Positions 3,948 through 31,254 are shown, numbered from the stretch's first letter. The stretch: 31,254 nt of DNA from an uncultured Deinococcales bacterium (GCA_964247135.1 CAXTTL010000029.1:1-31254), one strand, 5' to 3'. Translations and numbers: made by a program. The notes: generated from the sequence alone by a model not told the origin.

Positions 3948-4178
3948 ATGGAAATCGCATTGTCAAAAGATGCGCTCAGACGCATTGAAAAACTGCAAAA
4001 CAGCCTAAAAACCACCAGTGCGGACGTGATTGAACAAGCACTGGTCGAACTCGAGCGTCGAGCCGATAATTTTCGGGCAATTCTCGAGGATGATGCTGTC
4101 AATCATGATTTGTCCGAAGAGGATGGAATGTTGTTGGCACTCGAGGCGCAACGTGCTGTGCGGGATGCTCGAGGTTAG
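3948..4178 (+). CDS. Putative antitoxin (RHH/CopG-like), leaderless
   Basis: TACAAT(3936-3941)-N6-ATG; stop overlaps PIN gene start. Confidence 0.7.
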   Translation: MEIALSKDALRRIEKLQNSLKTTSADVIEQALVELERRADNFRAILEDDAVNHDLSEEDGMLLALEAQRAVRDARG

Positions 4179-4609
4179 TGTTAAAAGTTGTTTTGGATAC
4201 GAATGTTTTTATCAGTGCGATGCTTCACCCAGATGGCGTTTGTGGAAATATCATTCGAGCTTGGGAACACCGCGCTTTTGTGGTGTTGTATAACTTTGAG
4301 TTGCTCGAGGAAATCAAATTGGTTTGCGCTTACCCACGTTTGAAAAAGCGTTTGAAACGCAATCGGATTGGTGCGCTTGTCAATCAATTGCACTCGGACG
4401 GCTTGTACATTAAAGGCAACCGAACCTGGAGGGAATCCAAAGACCCAAAGGACAATTTCTTAATCGCTATTGTCGAACAAGGTCATGCCGATGCTTTGGT
4501 GAGCAGCGATAACATTGGCGTTTTGGAATTGAAAACGCTTGGAGAAGCTGTTATTTTGACTCCAGCCGAGTTCTTAAATTTTTTGCGATTGCGTCAATTG
4601 ATTGACTAA
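4178..4609 (+). CDS. PIN-domain toxin (PIN_3/VapC-like)
   Basis: VVLDTNVFISA, LEE, DPKDNFL, ADALVSSD acidic PIN motifs. Confidence 0.88.
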   Translation: MLKVVLDTNVFISAMLHPDGVCGNIIRAWEHRAFVVLYNFELLEEIKLVCAYPRLKKRLKRNRIGALVNQLHSDGLYIKGNRTWRESKDPKDNFLIAIVEQGHADALVSSDNIGVLELKTLGEAVILTPAEFLNFLRLRQLID

Positions 4610-4613
4610 ATCC

Positions 4614-5114
4614 TTAAACCTCAATTTCACAACCACACTCGAGATTTAATTTCACGGGTGACTCGAGCCGTATCTTAAAGTCTTTTCTGTGATGGTACAC
4701 GATTTTAAGCCGTGGCTCGAGAATCAAAACATCTTTCACGCCCAAGCCAAGGTAAAAACTGGGGGCAACCTCGAGGTCTTTGTACTCGTAACCTTCGGAA
4801 ATCACTTCAACCACGGCTTCGGGGATAATCTCGAGGGCGCTGTAAAGTTGTTCGGGTTTTAATTCTTGGCAGAGAATCGCAATGTCTGGACGTTTGAGTG
4901 AACCTTCGCCAAACTTAAAAAGCGTGTCCGAAAGGTGCGTGCAGGCACAAGCTCGAGAATCATCTTTTGGTTTAATGCTCTCTCGAATTCGGTCAATCTC
5001 GAGTTGATGCCCTGCGACTGGACTGGCTTCCCACAGTGGAACACCACGCACAAACTCGAGCCGCACATTCATGTTGGCAGCATCAAGAATCATTTGCTCG
5101 GGTGTTATTGCCAT
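4614..5114 (-). CDS. Uma2 family (PD-(D/E)xK) putative endonuclease, leaderless
   Basis: RLEFVRG...SP...H, KRPDIA, PEAVVEVIS, KD...Y...GV; TAAACT-N6-ATG. Confidence 0.85.
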   Translation of the reverse strand: MAITPEQMILDAANMNVRLEFVRGVPLWEASPVAGHQLEIDRIRESIKPKDDSRACACTHLSDTLFKFGEGSLKRPDIAILCQELKPEQLYSALEIIPEAVVEVISEGYEYKDLEVAPSFYLGLGVKDVLILEPRLKIVYHHRKDFKIRLESPVKLNLECGCEIEV

Positions 5115-17064: not shown

Positions 17065-18579
17065 ATGGGGAACGAGGGCGTTTTTAACGGTTACGCACCA
17101 AACGGGTTCTTCGATGAAATGTTTGAACCCGACGGCACGCCTCGAGCGCACTACGCAAAGGTGCTCGAGCGACTTGAGGCTTTGGGACGCCCCGAATTTG
17201 AGCGACGGCGCACCTTATCGGATTTGAGCTTCCGCAATCAAGGCATCACCTTTACCGTTTACGGCGACACCGAAGGCACCGAACGCACCTTTCCGTTTGA
17301 CCCAGTGCCGCGCATCATTCCCGCCCAAGAATGGGCGCACCTCGAGAGGGGTTTGACGCAGCGCGTGCTTGCCTTGAACGCGTTTTTGCGCGATGTTTAC
17401 GGCAAGGGCGAGATTTTGAACGACGGCGTCGTGCCCAGAGACTTGGTTTTAAGTGCCAGCCATTTCCGCCGCGAGGTTCACGGCATCAACCTGCCGCACG
17501 GTTTGTACACCCACGTGGTCGGCTCGGATTTGATTCGAGACGAAAACGGCACGTACATGGTGCTCGAGGACAATCTGCGCACACCCTCGGGCGTCAGTTA
17601 TTTGCTGGCAAACCGGGTCGCCATGACCCGCACCTTGCCCAGTTTGTTTCAAGACCAGGGCGTGCGCCCAGTCCAGCATTACACCACGGTGCTGCTCGAG
17701 TTGCTGCGCTCGCTCGCGCCCAGGAATGTCGAAGAGCCAACCATCGTCGTGCTGACCCCTGGGATGTACAACAGCGCCTATTTCGAGCACGCCTTTTTGG
17801 CGCAGCAAATGGGCGTGGAATTGGTTGAGGGCAGGGATTTGTTTGTCTCGGACGGCAAAGTTTGGATGCGCACCACATCTGGGCGCGAACAGGTGGACGT
17901 GATTTACCGCCGCGTCGATGACGATTACCTCGACCCACTGGCTTTTAATCCCAACTCGAGCCTCGGCGTGCCAGGTTTGCTCGAGGCGTACCGCAGCGGT
18001 CGTGTGGCGCTGGCAAACGCGATTGGTGCGGGCGTGGCGGACGACAAAGCGATTTACGCCTACGTGCCAAAAATGATCGAGTATTACCTCTCCGAGCGCC
18101 CAATCTTGCCGAACGTGCCAACGCTCTTGGGTTGGGACAAAGAAGGGCTTGCCGAAATGATGAACAGTCCAGAAAAACTGGTGATCAAAGCCGTCGGCGA
18201 GGCGGGCGGTTACGGCATGTTGGTCGGTACGGCATCGAGCAAAGCCGAGATTGCCGAGTTCATGAAAAAAGTGACCGCCAACCCGCGCAATTACATCGGA
18301 CAACCCACCATCGCCCTCTCGAGACACCCGACGTATTACCCCGACACAGGACAGTTTGAACCCTGCCATGTGGACTTGCGCCCGTACATTCTGGTCGGCG
18401 AAAAGATCACAATTGTGCCAGGCGGCTTAACCCGAGTTGCCTTAAAACGCGGCAGTCTGGTGGTCAACTCCAGTCAGGGCGGCGGCAGCAAAGACACCTG
18501 GGTGCTCGAGGACACGCACTCGGGACAAAGCCAATCCCAATCGCAGAGTCAATCGCAAAACATGGGCGGTGATGATTAA
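17065..18579 (+). CDS. Circularly permuted type 2 ATP-grasp protein
   Basis: [58 protein letters not shown]. Confidence 0.92.
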
Positions 18580-19508
18580 TGCTCTCTCGGGTTGCCGAAA
18601 GTTTATTCTGGATTGCGCGGTACATCGAACGCGCCGAAAACATTGCCAGGCTCTTGGACGTGAACTACTACGCCACGCTCGAGGGGGCAGGACTGGTCAC
18701 CCAGCAATGGTCACCCCTGCTGGCGATTACAGGCTCACAAGAGGAGTTCAAAGCCAAGGGTTACCGCGCCGACGCAAGAACCGTACCAAACTGGTTGGCG
18801 TTCGATCCCAGCAATCCCTCGAGCATCCGCAGTTGCATCGCTCAAGCCCGCGAGAACGCCCGAGCGCTGCGCGACCGAATCTCGAGCGAAATGTGGGAGT
18901 GCATCAACAGCGCCTATCACAAACTTTGCTTTGGCACCGAACACGTTTTGCCCAACGACGAGTTGCACCAATACTGCGTGACCGTGCGCGACGCCAGCCA
19001 CCTGTTTTTCGGCATTGCCTTCGCCACCTTGCCGCGCGATCAGGGCTGGCAATTTTTGCAGGCGGGACAACACCTCGAGCGCGGCGATGCCCTGTTGCGG
19101 CTCTTGCAAGTCAGGTACAAAAACACGGGCGGAGCAGCCGTCGCCGAAGCTTTAGAGAATCACCGTTGGATGGCAGTCCTGAAAACCGCCAGCGCCTACG
19201 AGGCTTACCGCAAAAGCAAAGCCCGCCTCGAGCCTAGGGGTATCGCCGAATTTTTGCTGCTCGAACCAGACTTTCCGCGCAGCGTCCGCTACTGCGCCGA
19301 AACCCTCTGCGCCGCCCTCGAACTGATCGCCGAAGCCAACCGCAGCGGCAAACGCGACGCCCTGCGCGAAGTCGGTTGGCTCGCCGCGAAACTCGAGTAC
19401 GCGCAAATCGATCAGATTTTAGACCTTGAAAACCCCAGTCTCGAGCAATTGCTGGGCGATTTTAACGCGGTGGGTGCGGCGGTCTACCGAGCCTATTTTA
19501 GCAATTAG
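18579..19508 (+). CDS. Alpha-E domain protein
   Basis: [41 protein letters not shown]. Confidence 0.92.
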   Translation: MLSRVAESLFWIARYIERAENIARLLDVNYYATLEGAGLVTQQWSPLLAITGSQEEFKAKGYRADARTVPNWLAFDPSNPSSIRSCIAQARENARALRDRISSEMWECINSAYHKLCFGTEHVLPNDELHQYCVTVRDASHLFFGIAFATLPRDQGWQFLQAGQHLERGDALLRLLQVRYKNTGGAAVAEALENHRWMAVLKTASAYEAYRKSKARLEPRGIAEFLLLEPDFPRSVRYCAETLCAALELIAEANRSGKRDALREVGWLAAKLEYAQIDQILDLENPSLEQLLGDFNAVGAAVYRAYFSN

Positions 19509-19588
19509 CAAACCCAGCTTCTTTGGGTACGAGAAAATGATTTTGGCTTATCGCTTAAAGCTTGGAGCTTAGAGCCAAAGGGGTTTCA

Positions 19589-20416
19589 GTGCGAGCCAAC
19601 ATCCATCACATCACCGAATACCGTTACCCCGAACCCGCCTTCGATTCGTTTAACGAACTGCGCCTGAAACCGATTGAAGACTCGAGACAGAGCGTGCTGT
19701 CATTTCAGTTGCGACTCGAGCCGAACGTGCCCGTTTACTCGCACCTGGATTATTACGGCACGACCCTGCATCACTTTCATGTGCTCGAGAAGCACACCAT
19801 CTTGAGGATTGAAACTAAAGCGTTGGTCGTCACGCACGCCATGACCCAACCGATTGGGCAACCCGCCAGCGTCCTCGAGCCGCACCGAATACCGAACATT
19901 GAATACCTGACCACCAGCCCTCGCGTGCCGCTCGAGTTTGACTGGGCGATCATTTTGGGCTGGCACAAGCTTGGGACAGCGGAAGATTATGTCGCGTACC
20001 TGGACGGTCTGAACTCGCATTTACACTCGAGATTTACCTATCAATCTGGGTTCACAAAAGTGGACACGCCCTTGCTCGAGTTTGTGCAGGGTGGCATTGG
20101 CGTCTGCCAAGATTACGCCCACGCCATGCTCGCCGTGGCGCGAAGCAACGGCATTCCAGCGCGGTACGTCAGCGGTTACGTTTACGCTGGCAGCGATTTT
20201 GTTGGCGCGGAAGCCACCCATGCTTGGCTCGAGTGTTTGATTCCAGGTTACGGCTGGCTTGGCTTTGACCCGACCAACAACACCCGCATCAACGAATCGC
20301 ACATCAAAATTGGGCATGGACGCGATTACGACGATGTACCACCCTTGCGCGGATTGCGGCGCGGTGGGGGCATAGAATCGATTGGGGTTGAGGTTTCGGT
20401 GGATGTTCAACAGTAA
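19589..20416 (+). CDS. Transglutaminase-like protein (Bact_transglu_N plus catalytic core)
   Basis: H.TEY.Y, GVCQDYAH, IPARYVSGY, HAW.E, GFDPTN, GRDY.DV.P. Confidence 0.92.
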   Translation: MRANIHHITEYRYPEPAFDSFNELRLKPIEDSRQSVLSFQLRLEPNVPVYSHLDYYGTTLHHFHVLEKHTILRIETKALVVTHAMTQPIGQPASVLEPHRIPNIEYLTTSPRVPLEFDWAIILGWHKLGTAEDYVAYLDGLNSHLHSRFTYQSGFTKVDTPLLEFVQGGIGVCQDYAHAMLAVARSNGIPARYVSGYVYAGSDFVGAEATHAWLECLIPGYGWLGFDPTNNTRINESHIKIGHGRDYDDVPPLRGLRRGGGIESIGVEVSVDVQQ

Positions 20417-21128: not shown

Positions 21129-21731
21129 TCACAACCAACCCTTTTCCCTGGCAATTCTTGCCGCCTCGATACGGTTGTTCGCGCCAAGTTTGGCGATGGC
21201 TTCGGACAAATAATTGCGGATTGTTCCCTCAGAAAGTTTCAAACTGCCCGCAATCTCGAGGCTGCTTTGACCCTCACTGGCATAGCGCAAGACTTGGCGT
21301 TCACGGTCTGTCAGCGGATCGGCTTCGCTCCAGGCTTCAAGCGCCAAACTTGGGTCTATCGCTCGAGCGCCCGCATGAACGCGGCGCACGGCGTCGGCAA
21401 GGTCGGCGGCGGGAGCATCCTTCAGGAGATATCCCGTCGCGCCAGCCTCGAGCGCACGGCGCAAGTAACCCGCTCGGGCGAAGGTCGTGACGATCACGAC
21501 TTTGGTTTTGAGGTTGTGTTTTTTGACCTCGAGCGCGAGTTCCAAACCCGTCATTTTGGGCATTTCGATGTCGGTCAGCAGAACATCGGGTTGGAGTTTT
21601 TGGGTTTGCTCGAGGGCTTCAAGACCGTTCTGGGCTTGGAAGATCACCTCAATGTCACCTTCAAGCTCGAGCAGTGCAGACAGTGCACCACGCACCAAGG
21701 CTTGGTCTTCGGCGAGGATCACCCGAATCAT
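21129..21731 (-). CDS. NarL/LuxR family response regulator (DesR/YvfU-like)
   Basis: LAEDQ, TDIEMP, GYLLK, LTDRE, LSEGTIRNYLS HTH. Confidence 0.92.
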   Translation of the reverse strand: MIRVILAEDQALVRGALSALLELEGDIEVIFQAQNGLEALEQTQKLQPDVLLTDIEMPKMTGLELALEVKKHNLKTKVVIVTTFARAGYLRRALEAGATGYLLKDAPAADLADAVRRVHAGARAIDPSLALEAWSEADPLTDRERQVLRYASEGQSSLEIAGSLKLSEGTIRNYLSEAIAKLGANNRIEAARIAREKGWL

Positions 21732-21777
21732 GGTGACCCAAAAAGAATTTTGGTTGAAAGTTTAAAATATTCGATCA

Positions 21778-22917
21778 TCAAAGCACCTCGAGTTGCGCAG
21801 GATTTGGATTGGATTCGGTGGCACCGCTTAAGGCAAGCTTCACGCTGATGCCCCGTTTGCCGCTCGAGGTGATAAGGGCAAACTCACCTGCCAGGGCTGC
21901 GACCCGTTCTCGCATTCCGGCAATGCCGTTGCCTTCGGTTAGCTCGAGTTGCGTATCGTCATAAATCTCGAGCATCACGAATTGATTTTTTTGCTCCAAG
22001 CTGACAAAACAGGTTTTGGCATGGCTGTGCCTCACCACGTTGGTGATCGCCTCGCGCAAAATAAACGCCAGGGTTTGCTCGGTCGCCCATTCCAATTCGA
22101 GCGGCACGATGAACGGCTCGAGCTTGATTTGTGCCGCCTCGAGCGCCAAGGAAATGTTGGCGAGTTCGGCTTCGAGTCCACTCGAGCGGTACCCGCGCAC
22201 GGCGCTACGGACTTCGGACAGGGCTTCGCGGCTGATCCGTTCGACATCACGGATTTCGGCGATGGCTTTGGCAGGATTTTTTTCGGCGAGCTTGCTGGCG
22301 AGTTCGGACTTTAAGACGATCACCGAAAGCGTGTGCCCGAGCAAATCGTGAAGGTCACGCGCAATCCGTTCGCGTTCGGCAACTTTGGCAATGCGTGAAA
22401 CCTCATCTTGCGAGCGCCTGAGTTTTCGCTTGGTCATCATTTCTTGATAACCCATGTGGTTGCCCAAAGCCGCAATGATGGTCGAGATTGGAATGCTCCA
22501 GATCAACCAACCAGAACCAGCCAGTGCGAAATACAGTGTCGCAACAAAAGCAATGGCAATGCTGACCAGAGCGGGTCGAATGCTTTTTTGAAAACCTGCG
22601 AACGAACCCGCGTAAACCAAAAACCCCATACTGTCACCCTGAACGACCAGCCACAACAAACCCAGAATGACGTAACTCGAGATCATGCCAATCAAACTTG
22701 GCATCTGATACGGTTGCTCGAGGTTGATGTCCGAGCGACGAACCCAAAAAAACGCCCAGAGGAAAATCGCAATAAAAACAACGATCCAAAAAAAACTGTA
22801 AAAATACTGGAGCAGCGGTCGTGGTTGATTGACCAAAGCTACGATTGGGAAGCTCAAAAACACCAACCACACCAACGGAAACCAACGTGTCAAGGTATTG
22901 GGATTTGGGTTTGTCAT
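21778..22917 (-). CDS. HisKA_3 sensor histidine kinase (DesK/YvfT-like)
   Basis: Several TM segments, ERERIARDLHDLLGHTLS, REAITNVVRHS, GNGIAGMRER. Confidence 0.92.
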   Translation of the reverse strand: MTNPNPNTLTRWFPLVWLVFLSFPIVALVNQPRPLLQYFYSFFWIVVFIAIFLWAFFWVRRSDINLEQPYQMPSLIGMISSYVILGLLWLVVQGDSMGFLVYAGSFAGFQKSIRPALVSIAIAFVATLYFALAGSGWLIWSIPISTIIAALGNHMGYQEMMTKRKLRRSQDEVSRIAKVAERERIARDLHDLLGHTLSVIVLKSELASKLAEKNPAKAIAEIRDVERISREALSEVRSAVRGYRSSGLEAELANISLALEAAQIKLEPFIVPLELEWATEQTLAFILREAITNVVRHSHAKTCFVSLEQKNQFVMLEIYDDTQLELTEGNGIAGMRERVAALAGEFALITSSGKRGISVKLALSGATESNPNPAQLEVL

Positions 22918-22938
22918 GATTCCTTCTCGAGAAACAGT

Positions 22939-23742
22939 TTAACCGTACTGCTTGGCTTCGTCACGTTTGTACGCCCAGACCGCCAACGCCAAAAACAGCA
23001 CGGTAAAACCCAAATTCCACATGATGTGCGAGTTGAGGCTGGCGCTGTCACCCGCGCCCAAAGTGTGCCAAGCCAGTTGACCGCTGTGATAGGCGGGCAG
23101 GTACGGCGCGATGTCTTGGACAAACTGTGGCAGGTTCTTGATCGGCAAAAAGATGCCTGAGGCGAACGACATCGGTAAGAAAATCAGTTGCGTGATCGGC
23201 GTGGCACTTTGTGGGTTGCCAAGATAACCAATGAACAAGCCCAGCGCCACGAAGGGCATCATGCCGAGCATGATTCTGGCGGTCAGCAACAACCAAGTCT
23301 CGAGTGGGAGTGAAATGTGCGCGACCAGAATTCCAAAAATAAACAATGCCCCAAGTGTGAATAAGCCCGACAGCATCGCCGTGATAATTTTCGCGCTGAA
23401 GTACATGATTGGGTGCATCGGTGTTGCGCGGGTCAAACGATTCCAGCCCAAACCGCGCTCGGCGGCAATGCCGACCCCGAAACCGAACAGGGCTGCCGAA
23501 AGCATTCCATAAGTCCCATATGAAGCCAGCAAATACGCGCCGAGCTTAACCCCATTGCCAATGTTTTCTTTGGCGTTGGGCAAACCAAAGAGCGTAAAGA
23601 ACATGATCGGGAACAAAACGGTGGGAATCAAAAAACCTGGGTTGCGCAGCAAACGAATGACCTCGCAGTACAACTGATAGCCCAGCGGTTTGAACGGATT
23701 GTAAGCTCGAGCAGGCATATTTTTGGGGTTCAGAACAGTCAT
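22939..23742 (-). CDS. ABC-2 type permease (YvfS-like)
   Basis: Multiple TM segments, ERGLGW.RL.RATP, LPAYH. Confidence 0.88.
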   Translation of the reverse strand: MTVLNPKNMPARAYNPFKPLGYQLYCEVIRLLRNPGFLIPTVLFPIMFFTLFGLPNAKENIGNGVKLGAYLLASYGTYGMLSAALFGFGVGIAAERGLGWNRLTRATPMHPIMYFSAKIITAMLSGLFTLGALFIFGILVAHISLPLETWLLLTARIMLGMMPFVALGLFIGYLGNPQSATPITQLIFLPMSFASGIFLPIKNLPQFVQDIAPYLPAYHSGQLAWHTLGAGDSASLNSHIMWNLGFTVLFLALAVWAYKRDEAKQYG

Positions 23743-24632
23743 TGTTTTGCTCCTTGTTCGGTGATTTCCATGAAGGCTTCCTCGAGTCCGGCACCCGTCA
23801 CGCTAAGGTTTGAAATCTGCAAGCCAGAAGCGAAAATTTCTTGCAAAACTTTTTCCGGCTCGAGCGTGTACAAGTTCACAGTGTCGGCGGTCTGATTGAA
23901 ACGTTGCACATTCGCCAGTTGTTCGATTGTGCCCACATTTCCAACCTCGAGTTTGAACGAAACGTTCTTGCCACCGACCCGAGATTTGATTTGCGCGGGG
24001 CTGCCCTGCGCCACGATCTCGCCTTTGTTGATGACAATGATTCGGTTTGCCAGCGCGTCGGCTTCCTCGAGGTAATGCGTGGTCAGGATCACGGTTTTGC
24101 CCGTTTTGGCAAAGATTGAGATTTCTTGCCAGAACGCGCGACGCGATTCGACATCGAGTGCCACGCTGGGTTCGTCCAGAAACAAGACATCGGGATTGCC
24201 GCAAATGGCGAGTGCAAAATACAGGCGTTGCTTCTGCCCACCCGAAAGCGTGGAGGCGATGGCATTGGTTTTCTCGGTCAAATTTGCCATCTCGAGCACC
24301 TTGGAAACCATCAAGGGCGCGTTGTAAAACTGGGTGAACAACTGAATCAACTCGCGCACCTTCAACAATCCTGGCACGCCCGATTCTTGCAGCATCACCC
24401 CGATTCGCGCACGGTTTTTGGGTTCTCGAGGGTTCTGCCCAAAAATTCTGGCATTGCCGCTCGAGGGTGAACGCAAACCAAGCATGATGCTGATGGCGGT
24501 GGTTTTTCCCGCGCCGTTCGGTCCGAGAAACGCGACGACCTCACCCGAATCAACTTTGATTGACACGTTGCGAAGTGCTTGAACACTTCCAAAAGATTTA
24601 CTGGCATTCTCGAGTTCAACCGCCAAAGTCAT
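23739..24632 (-). CDS. ABC transporter ATP-binding protein (YvfR-like)
   Basis: GPNGAGKTT, LSGGQKQR, LFLDEP, TTHYLEEA; AGGAGG SD before ATG 24632. Confidence 0.92.
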   Translation of the reverse strand: MTLAVELENASKSFGSVQALRNVSIKVDSGEVVAFLGPNGAGKTTAISIMLGLRSPSSGNARIFGQNPREPKNRARIGVMLQESGVPGLLKVRELIQLFTQFYNAPLMVSKVLEMANLTEKTNAIASTLSGGQKQRLYFALAICGNPDVLFLDEPSVALDVESRRAFWQEISIFAKTGKTVILTTHYLEEADALANRIIVINKGEIVAQGSPAQIKSRVGGKNVSFKLEVGNVGTIEQLANVQRFNQTADTVNLYTLEPEKVLQEIFASGLQISNLSVTGAGLEEAFMEITEQGAKQ

Positions 24633-24679
24633 AAAATATCCTCCTGCGGTTATTCTCGAGCGTGCCGCATTTTTTAGAC

Positions 24680-24716
24680 AGTGCAGGCTGTCAGAAGCCA
24701 GACATGACAAAAGTCA
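24680..24716 (-). promoter_or_regulatory. Probable DesR/YvfU-type response regulator box
   Basis: TGAC-AAAA-GTCA palindrome (24705-24716) plus degenerate second site TGACAGCCTGCACT upstream of the ABC-TCS operon. Confidence 0.55.
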
Positions 24717-25487
24717 GGTTTGGGCTTCAATCCAAGGCAGCATCTCGAGCAATTGTTTGACCTCGAGCGTGGCGATTGCCGTGCGCGGTTTGAACCCGCG
24801 ATCCAGCCAAACCGTTTTGATGCCCGCGTTGATGCCGCCCTGAACGTCGCGGGCAGCATTGTCGCCCACCATGATGCAAGCCTCGAGCGGTACGTTTAAT
24901 TCGTGCGCAATCCATTCAAAAATTTCTGGGTTGGGTTTACCCACACCAAGTTCCCCAGAGATTGCCACCGCATCAAACCAGGGCGCGAGTCCGCAACCGT
25001 GCCATTTCTGGCGTTGCAAACCAGCCACGCCGTTGGTCACAATTCCCAGTTTGTAGTTTAATTTTAACTGTACCAGCAACTCGTCCGCATCTGGGTAAAG
25101 TGGATACCTGGCACGCAAACCCTGCCAGAGTTGTTCTAAAGCTCGAGCATCGGCGGTTAAACTGCAATCGGTCAGCGCCGCATTCCAGGTTTCAAAACGG
25201 TAATCAACAATGTGCGCCTCGAGCAAAGCCTCAAACTCGAGTTTCGGATCGTAAACCGCCCACAAGCCCTCAAGCGCACTGTGACCAATTCGGGTGGCGT
25301 ACTCGAGGGCTGGGACTGGCAGGGTTTGCCATAAACGCTTCGCATGATGCTCCGCCGATAGCGCGAGTTTCTGGGCTTGTCTTGCATCTCGAGTCACGCT
25401 GAGCGCCACAATCCGAAACGCGTGACTCGATACGGCTTCGTCAAGAATCAAGGTTTCGTCGAGGTCAAACAACACTGCTTTAATCAT
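24714..25487 (-). CDS. HAD family hydrolase
   Basis: LFDLDETL, IVTNG, GKPNPEIF, MVGDN..RDV.GG. Confidence 0.9.
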   Translation of the reverse strand: MIKAVLFDLDETLILDEAVSSHAFRIVALSVTRDARQAQKLALSAEHHAKRLWQTLPVPALEYATRIGHSALEGLWAVYDPKLEFEALLEAHIVDYRFETWNAALTDCSLTADARALEQLWQGLRARYPLYPDADELLVQLKLNYKLGIVTNGVAGLQRQKWHGCGLAPWFDAVAISGELGVGKPNPEIFEWIAHELNVPLEACIMVGDNAARDVQGGINAGIKTVWLDRGFKPRTAIATLEVKQLLEMLPWIEAQT

Positions 25488-25574
25488 TCATTACAGTCTA
25501 CCGATTTTTGAAACTCGAGATTCGATCACGAGGAACATGGCAAGTATTTTCTCAACTCGAGGTAAACTGACTGC

Positions 25575-28445
25575 ATTAAAACGCTGCCTCGAGAAACCAA
25601 TACTTTAGGGCGCTTAAGGGCGCTCGGAAATGTACGGCTCGAGCCGTTTGGGTTCTCTCAAGCCAAGCCGCTGGTGTTGTTGGTGTATGTGGCGCTCGAG
25701 GGTGAGCAGAACCGCGATCATTTGCGCGAGTTGTTCTTCCCGAATGCGAGCGACGCGGCGGGCAGTTTGCGCAGCACCATCAACCGCGTGCGGCAAATTC
25801 TGCCGACGGCGTTTGAGGGTTCAGGCTCGAGGTTGAAAGCCGGCGTGGCGTGTGATGCGGCAGAGGTCTTGTTTGCGCTCGAGCATCAGGATTTGGAACG
25901 GGCGGTCGAACTGTATACCGCGCCGTTTCTCGAGCATTTGGAAATTTCGGAGGTTCACGCCGAGTTGCTCGAGTGGGTTGAATCGATGCGGGCGTATTTG
26001 GCTCGAGGGGTGATCGAGGCGCATTTGACGCTGGCAGAACGAAGCATTGAACGTTCAATTCGAGAAGGGCATCTCGAGGCGGCACGGAACGTTTCTGGTT
26101 TTGAAAATCTCGAGCCAGCCTGGTTGCAACGAATCAAAACGCTCGAAAGCCTCAACCTCGAGGTCACAAAACCTTTGGCAATTCCAAACAACCTCTCGCA
26201 AAGCTCAACCAGTTTTATCGGACGCGCCCGAGAGTCGGCGCACGTGCTCGAGTTGCTGCAAGAGGAAGCCCGCTTGGTGACCCTGGTCGGACCTGGCGGC
26301 GTGGGCAAAACCCGTTTGGCGCTCGAGATTGCACGGCAAAGTTTGCAACTCGAGGGTTTCAGCAACGGTGTGTTCATGGTCATGCTCGAGGCGGTCAATG
26401 ACCTTGAAGCCCTGCTGTCCAGAATCGTTCAAGTTTTGAAATTGAGCCTGAAACCCGACGCACCCGTGCTCGAACAAATCATTGAAGGCATCGGGCAACA
26501 CCAAATCTTGTTGGTGCTCGATAATTTCGAGCACCTGACCGAACACGGTTTTCACCTGACGCTGCTGCTCGAGCGTTGCCCAAACTTGCGCCTGATCGTG
26601 ACCTCCAGAGAACGCCTGAATTTGAACAGCGAATGGATCACGCCGCTCGAAGGTTTAAGTGCAAGCTCCGATCAAGATGCGGCGCTCGAGTTGTTCTTGG
26701 ATCGTGCCGCCAGAATTGGAATGCCCGTTCAGACTCCAGAAGACCGCCAAGATGCCCTCGAGATTTGCAAACTCGTGCACGGTTTTCCGCTGGCGATTGA
26801 ACTTGCCGTGCCGCTGTTACGCGCCCTGGACTTGAGCGAACTGCGTGAAGATTTAAGCCGCAACCTCGACCTTTTGGACAACACTTTGCGCGACACGCCC
26901 GAACGTCACCGCAGCATCCGCGCCGTGTTCGAGCATTCTTGGAAGATGCTGACCCCACCCGAGCAACATGCCCTGGCGCAACTCGCTGTGTTCAGGGGCG
27001 GCGCAACCCGAGAAGCCATTGGCGCAATCAACGCCACCAAATTGCAAACCCTGGCAAACCTGACCGACAAGAGTTTGGTGCAACGCGACGAAACCAATCG
27101 TTTTGGCATTCACCCACTTTTGTACCAATTCACGCTTGAAAAACTGCTCGAGCTTGCCGATTTTGCCAGCAGTTTTGAACGTCACAGCGATTATTATTTA
27201 ACCAAACTCGAGCGAGACACCGCCCAAATTCGCGGGTCTGAAGCCGCGAGTGCCATGCGCAACATCGAAACCGAACTCGAGAATATTCGGGCGGCATGGT
27301 CGCACGCGATTCAAAACCATCAAGCCCCAAGGCTCGAGAAAGTGCAAGATTTGGTGGTGTTTTTCGATCAACGCTCGAGGTACGCCGAGGGTTTGATTTG
27401 GTTTGAAGAAGCGATTACCAAACTCGAGTTGGACATGACCGCACCGCTTGCCCTGGCTGGAATGCTGGTCGGTGCGGCGTGGTTGCATTACCGATTGCGG
27501 CAAAGCCAAGAAGCGGAACAGAAAGCCCAACGTGCGGCAGATTTGGCTCGAGCGATGGGTGAAAGTGCTGAGGAGATTTTGTCCAAGGCTTTAAATACAC
27601 TTGGAAGCATCGCATTGTTTATGCACAATTATCAGAATGCCGTGCTCTTTGGAGAAGAAGCTTTAGAACTTACCAAAAAAAGTGGTGATTCCGCTCGAGA
27701 GGCAATTTGCCTTATCAATTTGGCAAATGCGGAAAAAATGCTTAAATTATTCCATAACGCAAAAAAGCGGTATGAAGAAGCTTTATTGATTTCTCAAGAT
27801 GGTAAAAATGATCGTGTCAGCATTCTTGCACATGTCAATTTGACCAATTTACTTATCTTTGATACGAGTGAAAAAGACTATTCGCGAATAATCTTTTTAG
27901 CAAAAAATGGTTTGGATTTGGCAGAAAAAAACAATGATACTTTGGCGATTATTCATCTCCGTTGGCAGTTGAGCTTGGCTTATTTTAATATTTCAGATTT
28001 TGAAGAGTCTAAAAAAATTGCTGAAACAATCTACGTAGAAGCAGTAAAATCAAATGTACCTGATTTTCAAGTTTTAGTTTTAAACATTCAAGGTCGAATT
28101 GCACTAGCGTATGGAAAAGCTGAAGAAGCAAAAACTTTTCTTATTGCTGGGTTAAAACTTGCACATAACATTGACGAGATTCCTAGGGTTTTAGACACAC
28201 TTATCTACTTTGCAGACCTTGAGAGTCGTTATGGTAAAATTTCTCGAGCAATTCGATATCTTCAAACCGTTATACACCACCCGCTTTTACATGATGCACA
28301 AATCAAAGAAAACCAAGCGATTTTTGATCGCTTGGTTATTGAGAAACCTATTTTGTCTCGAGGTGTGCATCCAGAATATTCTATTCAAGACATTGTGCAT
28401 GAAATATTACTTGAGGATACTACCGAATCAACCGTAGTGATTTAA
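25575..28445 (+). CDS. SARP/BTAD-NB-ARC(STAND)-TPR regulator; ORF-track GTG 25674 start is probably internal
   Basis: N-terminal LRALG.VRLE...KPLVLLVYVALEG...R.HL.ELFFP; Walker A GPGGVGKT; Walker B LLVLDNFEH; VTSRE; GFPLAIELA; IHPLL; C-terminal TPR-like repeats (ALNTLG, CLINLA, VLNIQG). Confidence 0.85.
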   Translation: MKTLPRETNTLGRLRALGNVRLEPFGFSQAKPLVLLVYVALEGEQNRDHLRELFFPNASDAAGSLRSTINRVRQILPTAFEGSGSRLKAGVACDAAEVLFALEHQDLERAVELYTAPFLEHLEISEVHAELLEWVESMRAYLARGVIEAHLTLAERSIERSIREGHLEAARNVSGFENLEPAWLQRIKTLESLNLEVTKPLAIPNNLSQSSTSFIGRARESAHVLELLQEEARLVTLVGPGGVGKTRLALEIARQSLQLEGFSNGVFMVMLEAVNDLEALLSRIVQVLKLSLKPDAPVLEQIIEGIGQHQILLVLDNFEHLTEHGFHLTLLLERCPNLRLIVTSRERLNLNSEWITPLEGLSASSDQDAALELFLDRAARIGMPVQTPEDRQDALEICKLVHGFPLAIELAVPLLRALDLSELREDLSRNLDLLDNTLRDTPERHRSIRAVFEHSWKMLTPPEQHALAQLAVFRGGATREAIGAINATKLQTLANLTDKSLVQRDETNRFGIHPLLYQFTLEKLLELADFASSFERHSDYYLTKLERDTAQIRGSEAASAMRNIETELENIRAAWSHAIQNHQAPRLEKVQDLVVFFDQRSRYAEGLIWFEEAITKLELDMTAPLALAGMLVGAAWLHYRLRQSQEAEQKAQRAADLARAMGESAEEILSKALNTLGSIALFMHNYQNAVLFGEEALELTKKSGDSAREAICLINLANAEKMLKLFHNAKKRYEEALLISQDGKNDRVSILAHVNLTNLLIFDTSEKDYSRIIFLAKNGLDLAEKNNDTLAIIHLRWQLSLAYFNISDFEESKKIAETIYVEAVKSNVPDFQVLVLNIQGRIALAYGKAEEAKTFLIAGLKLAHNIDEIPRVLDTLIYFADLESRYGKISRAIRYLQTVIHHPLLHDAQIKENQAIFDRLVIEKPILSRGVHPEYSIQDIVHEILLEDTTESTVVI

Positions 28446-28573
28446 GGTCCACCATTCACTGTACTAGGACCATTTGGTGCAATTGGCGGTGTAATTATGC
28501 CTTTTTGCACGCCAGCCATCACTCCCAAGCCCAGTACCGCAAACACCGCAAGCACTCTTGATAGTTTTTTCAT
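28442..28573 (-). CDS. Unannotated 43-aa secreted peptide precursor MKKLSRVLAVFAVLGLGVMAGVQKGIITPPIAPNGPSTVNGGP
   Basis: SD AAGGAGGTG 6 nt upstream; Sec signal (KK.SR, hydrophobic core, VMA cleavage); stop overlaps the STAND stop in TTAA. Confidence 0.8.
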   Translation of the reverse strand: MKKLSRVLAVFAVLGLGVMAGVQKGIITPPIAPNGPSTVNGGP

Positions 28574-28653
28574 TCAATTCACCTCCTTCAAATTTAAATA
28601 TTAGGGTTCAGGCTTTTGTAGATTTAAACAATCTCAAACAAAGTTGCTCGAGA

Positions 28654-28687
28654 CTTGGAATGAACAGCCTTATTTATTCGTTCCAAG
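28654..28687. promoter_or_regulatory. Inverted repeat between COG4315-like gene and peptide gene (terminator or operator)
   Basis: CTTGGAATGAA/TTCGTTCCAAG, 1 mismatch (G-U). Confidence 0.45.
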
Positions 28688-28751
28688 CAAATTTTAATTC
28701 AAAAAAAAAAATACAATACCCCAAATCATGTACGCATTACTTTAGCAATGA

Positions 28752-29201
28752 TTAAGGTCCACTATTAAGTGAGGTAGGTCCACCAATATCATCTGGGTCA
28801 TCCGCACCAGCAATTGATACCCCTACCCGTAATGGCGCAATATTTGGTGAAACCAGTTGAAACAACTTCGGAACTTCATGGATCGAATCGGCAGTGGCGC
28901 TGGGGTAAAAGTACAACCACCAACCACGGTAACTGATTTGCGTTAAACCCTCGTCGGGTGGACCATCGCGGTCAAAGTCGCTCAGGTCTTCTTGCTTGAC
29001 GCCTGCCCCCGCTTTGGGCGCTCCAATCAACGGACTCCAGGTGGCAATAAACTCGAGCAGGTACGGTGGGAAGTTTCCGCCCCAGGGAATGTACAAATGG
29101 TCGGGGTCGGATTTCATGGGGACAAAACGGTAGATGGTTCTGCCGTCGCCCGTGACCAGGTGCTTGCCGTCCTTGGATACTTGGATGATAACATCTGCCA
29201 T
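28752..29201 (-). CDS. COG4315/Lipoprotein_15-like protein without signal peptide, with C-terminal GPTSLNSGP tail
   Basis: HLVTGDGRTIYRF, WSPL, AGAGV...L..F.R.., QISYRGWWLYFY; AAGGAG SD before ATG 29201. Confidence 0.7.
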   Translation of the reverse strand: MADVIIQVSKDGKHLVTGDGRTIYRFVPMKSDPDHLYIPWGGNFPPYLLEFIATWSPLIGAPKAGAGVKQEDLSDFDRDGPPDEGLTQISYRGWWLYFYPSATADSIHEVPKLFQLVSPNIAPLRVGVSIAGADDPDDIGGPTSLNSGP

Positions 29202-29358
29202 GCGTGCTCCTTTTGAAGCATTGATTTTGTAAAGCAACTCGAGCATAACATGCGTGTTCATTCTTGTTGGTCAAGTCAAAACACTAAAATCTCGAGCTTT
29301 GGTTGGCAATTGGAATCTGGCTCGAGTTTGAAAATGGGGCTTGTCGTATTCTGAATTT

Positions 29359-30333
29359 ATGATCGATTCAAAATCCTCGGGCAAGATCACAGAATCAGAA
29401 CCTCGAGCGAGCGACACCAACGAAGACCTTGGCATTGGGCAGGTGGCGGCAGAAAAAAGCACGGCGCGGTTTGTCAATCAGGATGGGTCGTTTAACACCA
29501 GGCGTTTGGGTTTGGGGTTCCTCTCGAGTCAGAATGCGTTTTACGGGTTGATTACCTTGCAGCCTGCTTTGTTTTTCGTTTTTTTGGCAGCCACATTTTT
29601 TTTGCTCAACCTGTTGTTCGCCAGTTTGTACTGGCTTTGTGGCAACGATGCACTGCAATCTGGTTCCAATGTGGTGCTCGAGAATCGGTTTTGGCGAGGG
29701 TTTTTCTTTAGCGTGCAAACGCTGTCCACGATTGGTTACGGGCATGTCGCGCCTGCCAGTGTCGCGGCGAACATTGTGGCGACCGTCGAGGCTTTTGTGG
29801 GTTTGTTGGCTGTGGCTTTGGCAACGGGCTTGTTGTTTGCCAGGTTTTCCAAACCGATGACCCGAATCTTGTTTTCCAAAAACATGTTGTTCGCACCGTA
29901 TCAAGACGGTACGGCTTGGATGATACGGGTGGTGAATGGTTTACAAAATGAAGTGCTTGACATCGAAGCCCTGGTGACACTTTCCTGGTACGAAAACGTC
30001 AACGGTGCTCGGGTCCGTAAGTTCCGTCAGTTAAAACTCGAGCGCCAGAAGGTCGCGTTTTTCAATTTGTCTTGGACGGTGGTGCATCCCATCACTCAGG
30101 ACAGTCCGTTGTGGGGTGTGACTGAAAACATGTTGCTCGAATCTGATGCCGAGTTCTTGATTGTGCTTCAGGGTGTGGACGATGTTTTGTTTCAGCGCGT
30201 TCATGCCAGGGGTTCGTACAAAGCCACCGAAGCGGTTTGGAACGCCAAATTCGCCGACATTTACGCGCCAGCCAGTTTGGGGTATGTGGCGGTGGATACG
30301 ACCAAGCTCAGCAATTACGAAAAACTGGGTTGA
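29359..30333 (+). CDS. Inward-rectifier (KirBac-like) potassium channel, leaderless
   Basis: R.VNQDGSFN, FFFSVQTLSTIGYG filter, GLLFARFS, SWTVVHPI..DSPL; TATTCT-N6-ATG. Confidence 0.9.
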   Translation: MIDSKSSGKITESEPRASDTNEDLGIGQVAAEKSTARFVNQDGSFNTRRLGLGFLSSQNAFYGLITLQPALFFVFLAATFFLLNLLFASLYWLCGNDALQSGSNVVLENRFWRGFFFSVQTLSTIGYGHVAPASVAANIVATVEAFVGLLAVALATGLLFARFSKPMTRILFSKNMLFAPYQDGTAWMIRVVNGLQNEVLDIEALVTLSWYENVNGARVRKFRQLKLERQKVAFFNLSWTVVHPITQDSPLWGVTENMLLESDAEFLIVLQGVDDVLFQRVHARGSYKATEAVWNAKFADIYAPASLGYVAVDTTKLSNYEKLG

Positions 30334-31201
30334 TCTTCTTTTGCAAAACTGCGAATCGGTTGTTGAAATGATTTCAGTCTCTCGGGTAAAGAGAACTTTA
30401 AAACCAGATTTTAGTCTTAAGGTTTTCTTTAACTTTTATCCCTCTCGAGGTAGTTCAATTCTCGAAGCATGTTGTGAGGGGTTAAGAAAAGCTTTTTCTG
30501 GAGACTCAAGAAGTCTGTGTCTCACCGTATTTTTTGAATTCTTGGTTTTCTCGAGGCAAAATCAGAAATTTCTCAAATCACCACCAATCGCTCGAGTCTC
30601 AAATCGAAAGCCCAAAATAGGGTTGCTCGAGTTCAAAAACAGGTTTTCGTTTTCAAGACCGCTCGAGAAGTCAATTGAATTCAAGTTGTGGTTCACAACT
30701 GAATTGAGCATCGTCGAGTGTTTAAAAACGGCTTGGCTCGAGGTAAGCAAGTTTTGACGTTTAATTTTAAACCTGGCTTAAATCCCGATACTTCACTTAT
30801 CGAAGCATTCTTTCAACCTCGAGAATGAGTGATTGCAAAGGGTTTTTCTGGTATTTTTAGATTTTGGAATTTCTTTGGCAATCGGCTTTTAACCTGTGAA
30901 CACCGTGGTCATTCTCTCGAGCAGGTCTTTTAGCGTATCACAACTGCGGATGTTTTTCAGCATCAAATACTGCCTTGGGCTGGGGATAAACAGCTTTTTT
31001 GACGTTTACAAAAACCTCAATTTTACCGATAAGAAAGGCGTTTATTGATGTTTTTTCTATTTGCATTCTTGACCTCGAGCACCCTCAGAGCTGTCCTCGT
31101 GGGGTTGTTCATGTAAAAGCCCGCGTTGGGAAATTTGCACTTTTTTGTGAAATTTGTGCTAACGTGTTTTACGGAATAAAAATTCCAAAAGGAGAACTAT
31201 C

Positions 31202-31254
31202 ATGGCAGAGAAAAAAGTTGCAGCAAAACCAGCCGCCAAGAAACCAGCCGCCAA
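31202..31254 (+). CDS. Partial (5' end) Ala/Lys/Pro-rich protein MAEKKVAAKPAAKKPAA..., likely HU-type histone-like protein
   Basis: AAGGAGA SD; PAAKK repeats as in the Deinococcus HU N-terminal extension; truncated by window end. Confidence 0.5.
   Translation, partial: MAEKKVAAKPAAKKPAA

Follow-up and report, generated by a model that had tools for sequence, protein, structure and literature searches.

A COG4315-like protein with a variable Gly-Pro tail and its STAND partner: a candidate ligand-receptor cassette in Deinococcales

Genes at the locus

The window analysed here is a 31,254-nt stretch of DNA from an uncultured Deinococcales bacterium (GCA_964247135.1, CAXTTL010000029.1:1-31254). 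The gene at 28752..29201 (minus strand) encodes a leaderless, Cys-free, single-unit COG4315-like protein of 149 residues, a candidate carrier or precursor, as judged from its ORF and translation, its match to PF03640 and an AlphaFold2 model; AAGGAG stands 5 nt before its ATG at 29201. The protein constitutes one unit of the COG4315/PF03640 repeat: PF03640 (Lipoprotein_15) matches at 26.3 bits against a cut-off of 24.4, over residues 9-27 only, and the protein's atlas neighbours have PF03640. Generic members of COG4315/PF03640 are secreted proteins or lipoproteins that often contain several repeats; they have a Cys pair and do not end in Gly-Pro, whereas the 149-aa protein is devoid of the usual signal peptide or lipobox, Cys pair and motif Asp. 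These absences had been pointed out in the initial annotation and withstood closer scrutiny: an alternative 20-aa N-terminal extension from 29261 is not hydrophobic, the translation contains no Cys anywhere, and Met or Ala occupies the place of the Asp at both Y-x-aromatic-x-x positions, which we take, from the COG description, to correspond to the Y-x-aromatic-x-x-D motif. The acidic linker (ADDPDD) described as preceding the tail is likewise present. Literature searches found no paper on COG4315.

An AlphaFold2 model built from a 45-sequence alignment (mean pLDDT 85.1, pTM 0.77) predicts that residues 1-122 of the 149-aa protein are folded and that residues 126-149 are disordered, with pLDDT <50 from residue 126 on; an earlier model from a 12-sequence alignment was unusable (pLDDT 39.9) and is superseded. 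No fold match to the domain was obtained by Foldseek against the PDB at E<=0.001 or by a wide VIA-align search at Z>=2, and a profile search of PDB sequences with the domain returned chance-level matches only.

Convergent with this gene lies an AfsR-like STAND regulator at 25674..28445 (plus strand), 923 aa long when read from a GTG and recognized through its Pfam matches to NB-ARC (1.1e-9, residues 194-389), TPR_12 (4.2e-11, from residue 638) and NACHT (6.7e-7). The output domain is less readily recognized by profile: BTAD (PF03704) finds no match in the window's STAND at E<=1 and matches the orthologue in L003 weakly (0.012), and it is clear in the relatives L042, L046 and L048 (1e-18 to 1e-7). 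PF00486 gave no match at E<=1, and adding the in-frame extension upstream did not change this. This extension is an observation in its own right: in the STAND frame, the stretch before the first ATG/GTG/TTG (25566-25673) is free of stops and conserved, and it matches the N-terminus of the L003 protein. The extension starts at about 25566-25584, and the true start is probably a CTG (25584) or an ATT (25575), or else the annotated start is too short.

Between these two genes lies a third, at 28442..28573 (minus strand), defined from its ORF and homologues. Its 43-aa product consists of a Sec-type signal peptide, a brief pro-region and a terminal heptapeptide that is of one type with the tail of the 149-aa protein. 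The sequence GGAGGTG is found 6 nt upstream of its ATG, its stop codon overlaps that of the STAND gene, and it is situated 179 nt downstream of the 149-aa gene. An 11-nt inverted repeat with a 12-nt loop and no T-run (28654-28687, pair I6) occupies the interval between the 149-aa stop and the 43-aa start.

The Gly-Pro tail as a family hallmark

Comparisons at the genus and family levels delineate the tail of the 149-aa protein (28752..28802, minus strand) as an acidic linker, a small-residue-plus-Pro junction and a variable heptapeptide ending in Gly-Pro, followed directly by the stop codon. All 11 close homologues, whose bodies are 83-90% identical apart from two more distant members, end in Gly-Pro after an acidic linker, and the intervening residues vary between proteins. 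Across the genus-level clade the contrast between body and tail is pronounced, with a mean body identity of 92% (minimum 86%) against 26% at four variable tail positions, and among 46 distinct proteins of this clade the terminal heptapeptide takes 20 forms. Across all 86 distinct tails the closing two residues show no variation; Gly is third from the end in 61 of them, and Pro is the commonest residue at positions -8 and -7.

This ending distinguishes the family from its relatives. Gly-Pro closes 112 of 121 short family proteins (<=260 aa, a redundant set that includes close kin) versus none of 61 long, secreted multi-repeat relatives, and none of 80 generic COG4315 ORFs from other phyla end in this way. 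In loci L001-L035 it closes all 38 complete ORF matches, a 39th being cut by a contig end. A profile search for the tail family gave matches in 59 of 363 genomes of the order (a tally that counts one weak match in the unpublished genome G324, which is used for no other result), distributed over families f1 (12/18), f2 (21/125), f3 (0/23), f4 (2/68) and f5 (23/128). Among 1.84 billion cluster representatives, only 111 proteins reach E<=0.001, and scans of metagenome contigs with the tail protein found no relative.

Six Gly-Pro-tailed proteins (P0026, P0032, P0033, P0043, P0049 and P0099) nonetheless possess an N-terminal signal peptide or lipobox and the Cys pair. The tails of the first five have Asn at position -4, as do both ends in the window; P0099 is not in the alignment. 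Genome searches for these five members and for P0037 located none of them, and one search for the signal-peptide-bearing members gave generic COG4315 genes only, none of which ended in Gly-Pro.

A conserved STAND partner

Context was examined in 20 further, wider loci, of which L041, ending inside the gene, was left out. In 19 of the 19 informative loci the tail gene is followed by a convergent ORF of 744-1027 aa; 15 of these ORFs have NB-ARC, AAA, TPR or BTAD matches at E<=1e-5, and the other four align to them. The arrangement extends to L005, where a tail gene and STAND pair is found at 44% identity in a different gene context. The initial annotation had reasoned that homologs without the tail, or unlinked to STAND/peptide loci, would speak against its reading; what was found instead is a tail present throughout the family and a STAND partner in every informative locus. 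It is the STAND regulator, and not the 43-aa gene, that is the conserved partner of the tail gene.

Beyond the pair, conservation of the surroundings is confined to close relatives. A KirBac-like potassium channel gene at 29341..30333 (plus strand; Pfam IRK_C 1.8e-13, Ion_trans_2 2.4e-11) diverges from the 149-aa gene and is a neighbour at the genus level only, being found in L001-L004 and not in L005 or other genera. On the far side, an operon divergent from the STAND gene (21129..25487, minus strand) encodes, by Pfam, a HAD hydrolase, an ABC ATPase, an ABC-2 permease, a HisKA_3 kinase and a LuxR-type response regulator; its synteny is kept in L001 and L003 and lost in distant loci, and it is a putative target or exporter for the pair. 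Loci L001-L004 have the gene order of the window, i.e. channel gene, tail gene, convergent STAND, HAD hydrolase and ABC transporter. The stop codon of the tail gene abuts or overlaps that of the STAND gene in L001, L003 and L004, and the two lie 155 nt apart in L002; no second Gly-Pro-ended ORF is present in these four loci.

Origin of the shared C-terminal motif

The observation with which the initial annotation began, that the 149-aa and 43-aa proteins have closely similar C-termini, was reproduced in full. The ends GPTSLNSGP-stop and GPSTVNGGP-stop can be read exactly from the ORFs at 28752-29201 and 28442-28573 (both minus strand), and 24 of 31 nt are identical between 28752-28782 and 28442-28472, a similarity also recovered as repeat family D2 (77%). 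In the whole assembly (5.09 Mb, 386 contigs), only two of 99,158 stop-to-stop ORFs of at least 30 aa have a terminal GP preceded by another GP 2-8 residues before it, and these two are the 149-aa and 43-aa genes, 179 nt apart, which excludes a chance origin of the shared protein end. At the DNA level the best local alignment of the two genes reaches a score of 28, whereas 200 shuffles average 17.8 (sd 2.4) and never exceed 26. An extended duplication was considered as the source of the motif and rejected, because the DNA similarity ends at the tail.

The 43-aa gene is far more restricted in distribution than the tail. Three homologues (P0122-P0124), 81-86% identical, preserve the signal peptide almost without change and differ near the C-terminus. 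The other five genomes of the genus, four of which are represented by loci L001-L004, do not have the gene, and neither do L005 and the 18 remaining genomes of the family; a blastn search of these 18 with positions 28400-28780 gave chance-level matches only (best E 0.0027 over 30 nt), and scans of metagenome contigs with the 43-aa protein found no relative. As the 43-aa gene is absent from relatives in the genus and family while the Gly-Pro tail is family-wide, the tail is ancestral, and it is the 43-aa gene that is derived. The initial description of the tail as a copy or mimic of the secreted peptide therefore has the direction reversed, and the alternative of a recent accidental fusion to a decaying copy of the peptide gene is refuted. 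What survives of the tether or mimic idea is its connection to the neighbouring STAND: the pairing kept in all informative loci, together with the hypervariability that both partners display, supports a functional tie between the tail and the TPR sensor.

Comparison of the two gene types marks the 43-aa gene as a second, lineage-specific origin of this kind of heptapeptide. In the 43-aa protein P0123 the last eight residues are identical to those of the tail protein P0002, and those of the 43-aa protein P0122 to those of the tail protein P0146, indicating that the same peptide repertoire serves both gene types. Contig counts and lengths, the one basis for assigning these proteins to common loci, give the candidate pairings P0122 with P0002 (one contig of 14,964 nt each), P0124 with P0152 (four contigs each, the longest of 24,266 nt) and P0123 with P0146 (four contigs, the longest of 4,328 nt, for the former and one of 4,328 nt for the latter). 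If the proteins are paired in this way, this suggests that the two ends at a given locus differ and that two loci hold the same two heptapeptides with their positions swapped. In the window the 43-aa gene sits beside the STAND stop codon, the place that the tail occupies in other loci. A separate route to two tails per receptor is seen in L032-L035 (genus g8), where two Gly-Pro-tailed genes with different tails stand in tandem before one convergent STAND.

These data also bear on the null view, in which a fast-evolving disordered tail has no function, its neighbourhood is coincidental and the motif of the 43-aa gene stems from a small local duplication. The confinement of the similarity to 31 nt fits such an origin. 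The view nevertheless seems very improbable given an invariant terminal Gly-Pro in all 86 distinct tails across an order, a gene pair kept at 44% identity and below in different contexts, a conserved 43-aa ORF whose signal peptide hardly varies, and reading frames that remain intact in AT-rich DNA.

A low-GC hypervariable cassette

GC content and identity delimit a hypervariable, low-GC cassette at about 27500..28790, which takes in the C-terminal third of the TPR sensor of the STAND, the 43-aa gene and the codons for the tail of the 149-aa protein. GC content is 0.33-0.41 in windows over 27600-28949 versus 0.51-0.59 up to 27599, and the DNA of the cassette is about 45% identical to that of genus relatives versus about 90% in the flanks. 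In comparison with L001, L002 and L003, DNA identity runs at 77-98% as far as ~27380, falls to ~25-55% over 27625-28630 (L002 staying near 70% until ~27620) and returns to 70-100% from ~28752-28870. On the side of the tail gene, variation is restricted to the tail codons. The STAND proteins of the same three loci follow a parallel course, with identities of 85-95% for residues 1-590, ~50% for residues 590-690 and 16-33% for residues 690-923.

This pattern is not peculiar to the window. In each of three genus-level groups (g1; L045/L047/L049; L053 versus L055) the NB-ARC domains are 79-91% identical and the TPR ends 21-47%; the values are 79-84% and 25-28% among L045, L047 and L049, and 83% and 24% between L053 and L055. 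In 20 of 21 loci, GC content drops from the first 62% of the STAND gene to its last quarter, and in 12 loci the difference amounts to 10 points or more; the ORFs nevertheless stay open although the cassettes are AT-rich.

Comparison of tail types with TPR ends showed covariation in a sister genus, g3, and a mixed picture in the window's own genus. In g3, L036, L037 and L038 have one tail type in common and TPR ends 62-72% identical, and L039 and L040 have an identical eight-residue tail and TPR ends 55% identical, whereas the TPR ends are only 16-19% identical between the two sets. NB-ARC identity, in contrast, crosses the tail groups (88% for L037-L040, 63% for L039-L040). That tail type follows TPR type against the NB-ARC phylogeny shows that the cassette is exchanged as a unit in this genus. 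Within the window's genus, similar tails go with the most similar TPR ends (47%) in L001 and L003, yet L002 and L003 also have similar tails with TPR ends only 23% identical, and the TPR end of the window is nearest to the one in L004 (34-64% across the final 161 aligned residues) despite unlike tails. Co-inheritance of tail and TPR end could reflect linkage alone, because the two abut on the DNA; that the variable block has such abrupt boundaries favours selection acting on the pair, short of proof.

A hypervariable, low-GC sensor on a STAND NTPase also invites comparison with immunity. Bacterial STANDs that sense phage proteins are known, as described in the available text of one paper (PMC13581612), and the TPR end might by this account vary through an arms race with phages, the tail protein acting as a guard, decoy or inhibitor. 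The output domain, however, is, as seen in relatives, of the SARP/BTAD transcription-factor type, with no killing effector. For the STAND, PADLOC gave nothing beyond a generic TPR model (6.4e-11) and weak P-loop matches, with no match for the 149-aa or 43-aa protein, and the neighbours are ordinary chromosomal genes in conserved synteny, so that the context speaks against a defence island. Moreover, variation extends to the tail of the partner, something that phage sensing by itself would not lead one to expect, and an immune role for the pair strikes us as scarcely credible.

Glutaminyl cyclase and the case for cleavage

Evidence that the tail may be released from its carrier comes from one sub-clade of the family (alignment A5), in which position -7 is Gln in six of eight tails and Glu in the other two. 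At two of the three A5 loci with context (L042 and L048), a gene for a glutaminyl cyclase without a signal peptide is inserted between the tail gene and the STAND gene, following the tail gene on the same strand (L042:1517-2419 and L048:1409-2269). These enzymes are extra, divergent paralogues that score 157 and 140 bits versus ~300 for the housekeeping copy, which is present in five of five genomes tested. The third locus, L046, has Gln at -7 and no adjacent cyclase, and the 21 other loci all lack both a cyclase and a Gln or Glu at -7. Glutaminyl cyclase acts on N-terminal Gln or Glu. The conjunction of a dedicated cyclase with Gln or Glu at -7 implies that cleavage makes a new N-terminus in this sub-clade, i.e. 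that the tail is cut off there to free a heptapeptide. For the clade of the window, we infer by analogy only that cleavage would follow the acidic linker and Pro junction. Across loci, conservation with the pair does not extend to any protease, exporter or importer, and no modifying enzyme lies within the window, whose genome has two ordinary glutaminyl cyclase genes elsewhere (C171 and C109).

Alternatively, the tail might never be cut, the COG4315-like domain sensing a cue and then showing or hiding its Gly-Pro end to the STAND TPR. TPR domains do bind C-terminal peptides, as Hop does with EEVD and PEX5 with PTS1, and a tethered arrangement would accommodate the conserved and jointly hypervariable gene pair, the lack of a protease conserved nearby and the retention of a folded domain 92% identical within the genus, which is costly for a mere leader. 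Against this, the cytoplasmic cyclase and the Gln or Glu at -7 make sense only with an N-terminus made by cleavage, the same heptapeptides are found on a Sec-exported 43-aa minigene product without any attached domain, and a purely internal pair offers no obvious reason for diversification at the strain level. A tether of this sort is rather unlikely in our estimation. A complex prediction for STAND residues 540-923 with the 149-aa protein scored 0.01 and weighs neither way.

The cyclase genes (found in L042 and L048) might also be read as a sign of natural-product biosynthesis, the domain being the large leader of a ribosomally synthesized precursor (RiPP), the variable end its core and the STAND a pathway regulator like the SARPs. 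The layout of a conserved leader (92%) and a hypervariable core (26%) is present, Pro and aromatic residues often abound in the tails, and by NCBIfam the STAND weakly matches a RiPP-cluster TPR protein (54 bits versus a cut-off of 1125). Yet the pair is not accompanied by any conserved modifying enzyme, protease or exporter, none is present in the window, and the covariation of the regulator's sensor end with the core is left unexplained, making a precursor of this kind improbable.

A proposed ligand-receptor pair and its relation to known systems

The reading we prefer, with a little more confidence than doubt, is that the two genes form a ligand-receptor cassette in which a Gly-Pro peptide cut from a folded carrier is recognized by the TPR domain of a STAND transcription factor. 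In this scheme the 149-aa protein would be a folded cytoplasmic carrier whose disordered C-terminal end presents 6-8 variable residues closed by the invariant Gly-Pro. This end would be the specificity determinant, recognized by the equally variable C-terminal TPR repeats of the convergent STAND. The tail would most likely be cut off after the conserved acidic linker and Pro junction, to yield a short oligopeptide protected from exopeptidases and bearing, in one sub-clade, an N-terminal pyroglutamate. Binding of the cognate peptide would then switch the STAND ATPase and hence its DNA-binding output. Tail and TPR end would diversify and be exchanged together as one low-GC cassette, to which the 43-aa gene would add a lineage-specific second source of such a heptapeptide through the Sec pathway. 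We infer the binding, the cleavage in the window's clade, the export and the transcriptional output of the pair from this combination of features.

Several known systems resemble parts of this arrangement, and none is matched in every defining feature. A first parallel is with the RRNPP systems (Rap/Phr, NprR/NprX, PlcR/PapR and AimR/AimP), in which a cytoplasmic TPR receptor is encoded next to a gene with a variable C-terminal specificity peptide of 5-8 residues and cassettes diversify into types; the 43-aa gene of the window, with its signal peptide and C-terminal peptide, has the classical form, and it is absent from L001-L005 and the 18 other genomes of the family. The receptor here, in contrast, is a STAND/NLR-type NTPase with a SARP-like output rather than a plain HTH-TPR protein. 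The NB-ARC/NACHT ATPase between the N-terminal domain and the TPR of the window's STAND sets it apart from RRNPP receptors, which join an HTH or phosphatase domain straight to the TPR without an NTPase and bind a mature peptide that has been taken back into the cell. The usual precursor at these loci is also different, being a folded, leaderless 149-aa protein with an invariant Gly-Pro end, and the host is a member of the Deinococcota and not of the Firmicutes; literature searches found no relevant paper joining RRNPP and Deinococcus.

A second parallel is AfsR-AfsS of Streptomyces, which likewise consists of a SARP-NOD-TPR-type regulator with a small partner gene adjoining. The available text of one study reports that AfsS, the product of the gene next to afsR, binds AfsR (PMC10832544). 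According to the available portion of a preprint, the natural activating signal of AfsR is still unidentified and is engineered around, and the OmpR-type DNA-binding domain PF00486 is defining for AfsR-like large SARPs (bioRxiv 10.64898/2026.09.02.748808). The window's STAND has the NB-ARC-type ATPase followed by TPRs, and its sequence gives no detectable PF00486. Unlike the tail protein, AfsS belongs to a 63-aa-class of repeat proteins unrelated to COG4315, and no hypervariable tail or covarying TPR end is reported for AfsR-AfsS in the source texts at hand.

In layout, the polymorphic block recalls the pherotype cassettes, with which it has no homologous component. Pherotype cassettes such as comQXP of Bacillus and agr of staphylococci are contiguous polymorphic blocks of signal and receptor-sensing region with conserved flanks that are exchanged between strains; their receptors are membrane histidine kinases, and their peptides are chemically modified by dedicated enzymes. 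Searches of the literature found nothing describing the module of tail and STAND.

These comparisons invite a broader and more tentative proposal, possible though doubtful at present, that the Deinococcota have a peptide communication of their own, built on an AfsR-type STAND receptor, a 6-8-residue Gly-Pro peptide released from a folded cytoplasmic carrier, swappable cassettes and, in the window's strain, a Sec-exported second heptapeptide drawn from the same repertoire but unlike the tail of its own locus. The contig pairings above hint at reciprocal pairs in other strains. If this were true, the exported second heptapeptide would permit cross-talk or interference between strains. More immediately, the question of what ligand the TPR sensor of AfsR-like NLR transcription factors binds becomes testable, with a genome-encoded short peptide as candidate, whose specificity would be written in 4-5 residues and for which natural cognate and non-cognate pairs exist. 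Confirmation would extend signalling by peptides and TPR receptors beyond the Firmicutes and their phages, add the folded leaderless domain as a new type of precursor and give a function to an unannotated family.

Other features of the window

The remainder of the window holds several further features. At 17065-20413, 5 kb from the STAND gene, an operon encodes circularly permuted ATP-grasp, Alpha-E domain and transglutaminase-like proteins, a conserved trio. A gene for a PIN-domain protein and one for a putative endonuclease of the Uma2 family lie tail to tail at 4178-5114, and the DNA downstream of the channel gene (30300-31254) is low in GC once more (0.38-0.41), with no long ORF.

The hexamer CTCGAG is the commonest of genome G000, with 33,925 copies or 25x the expectation from base composition, and GAGCTC (0), GGGCCC (1), CGGCCG (3) and AGGCCT (4) are almost absent from the same genome. 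CTCGAG looks like a highly iterated palindrome, found alongside restriction-site avoidance. The window has 216 of these sites, or ~7 per kb, and they are thinner within the cassette, where 4 occur between 27600 and 28800.
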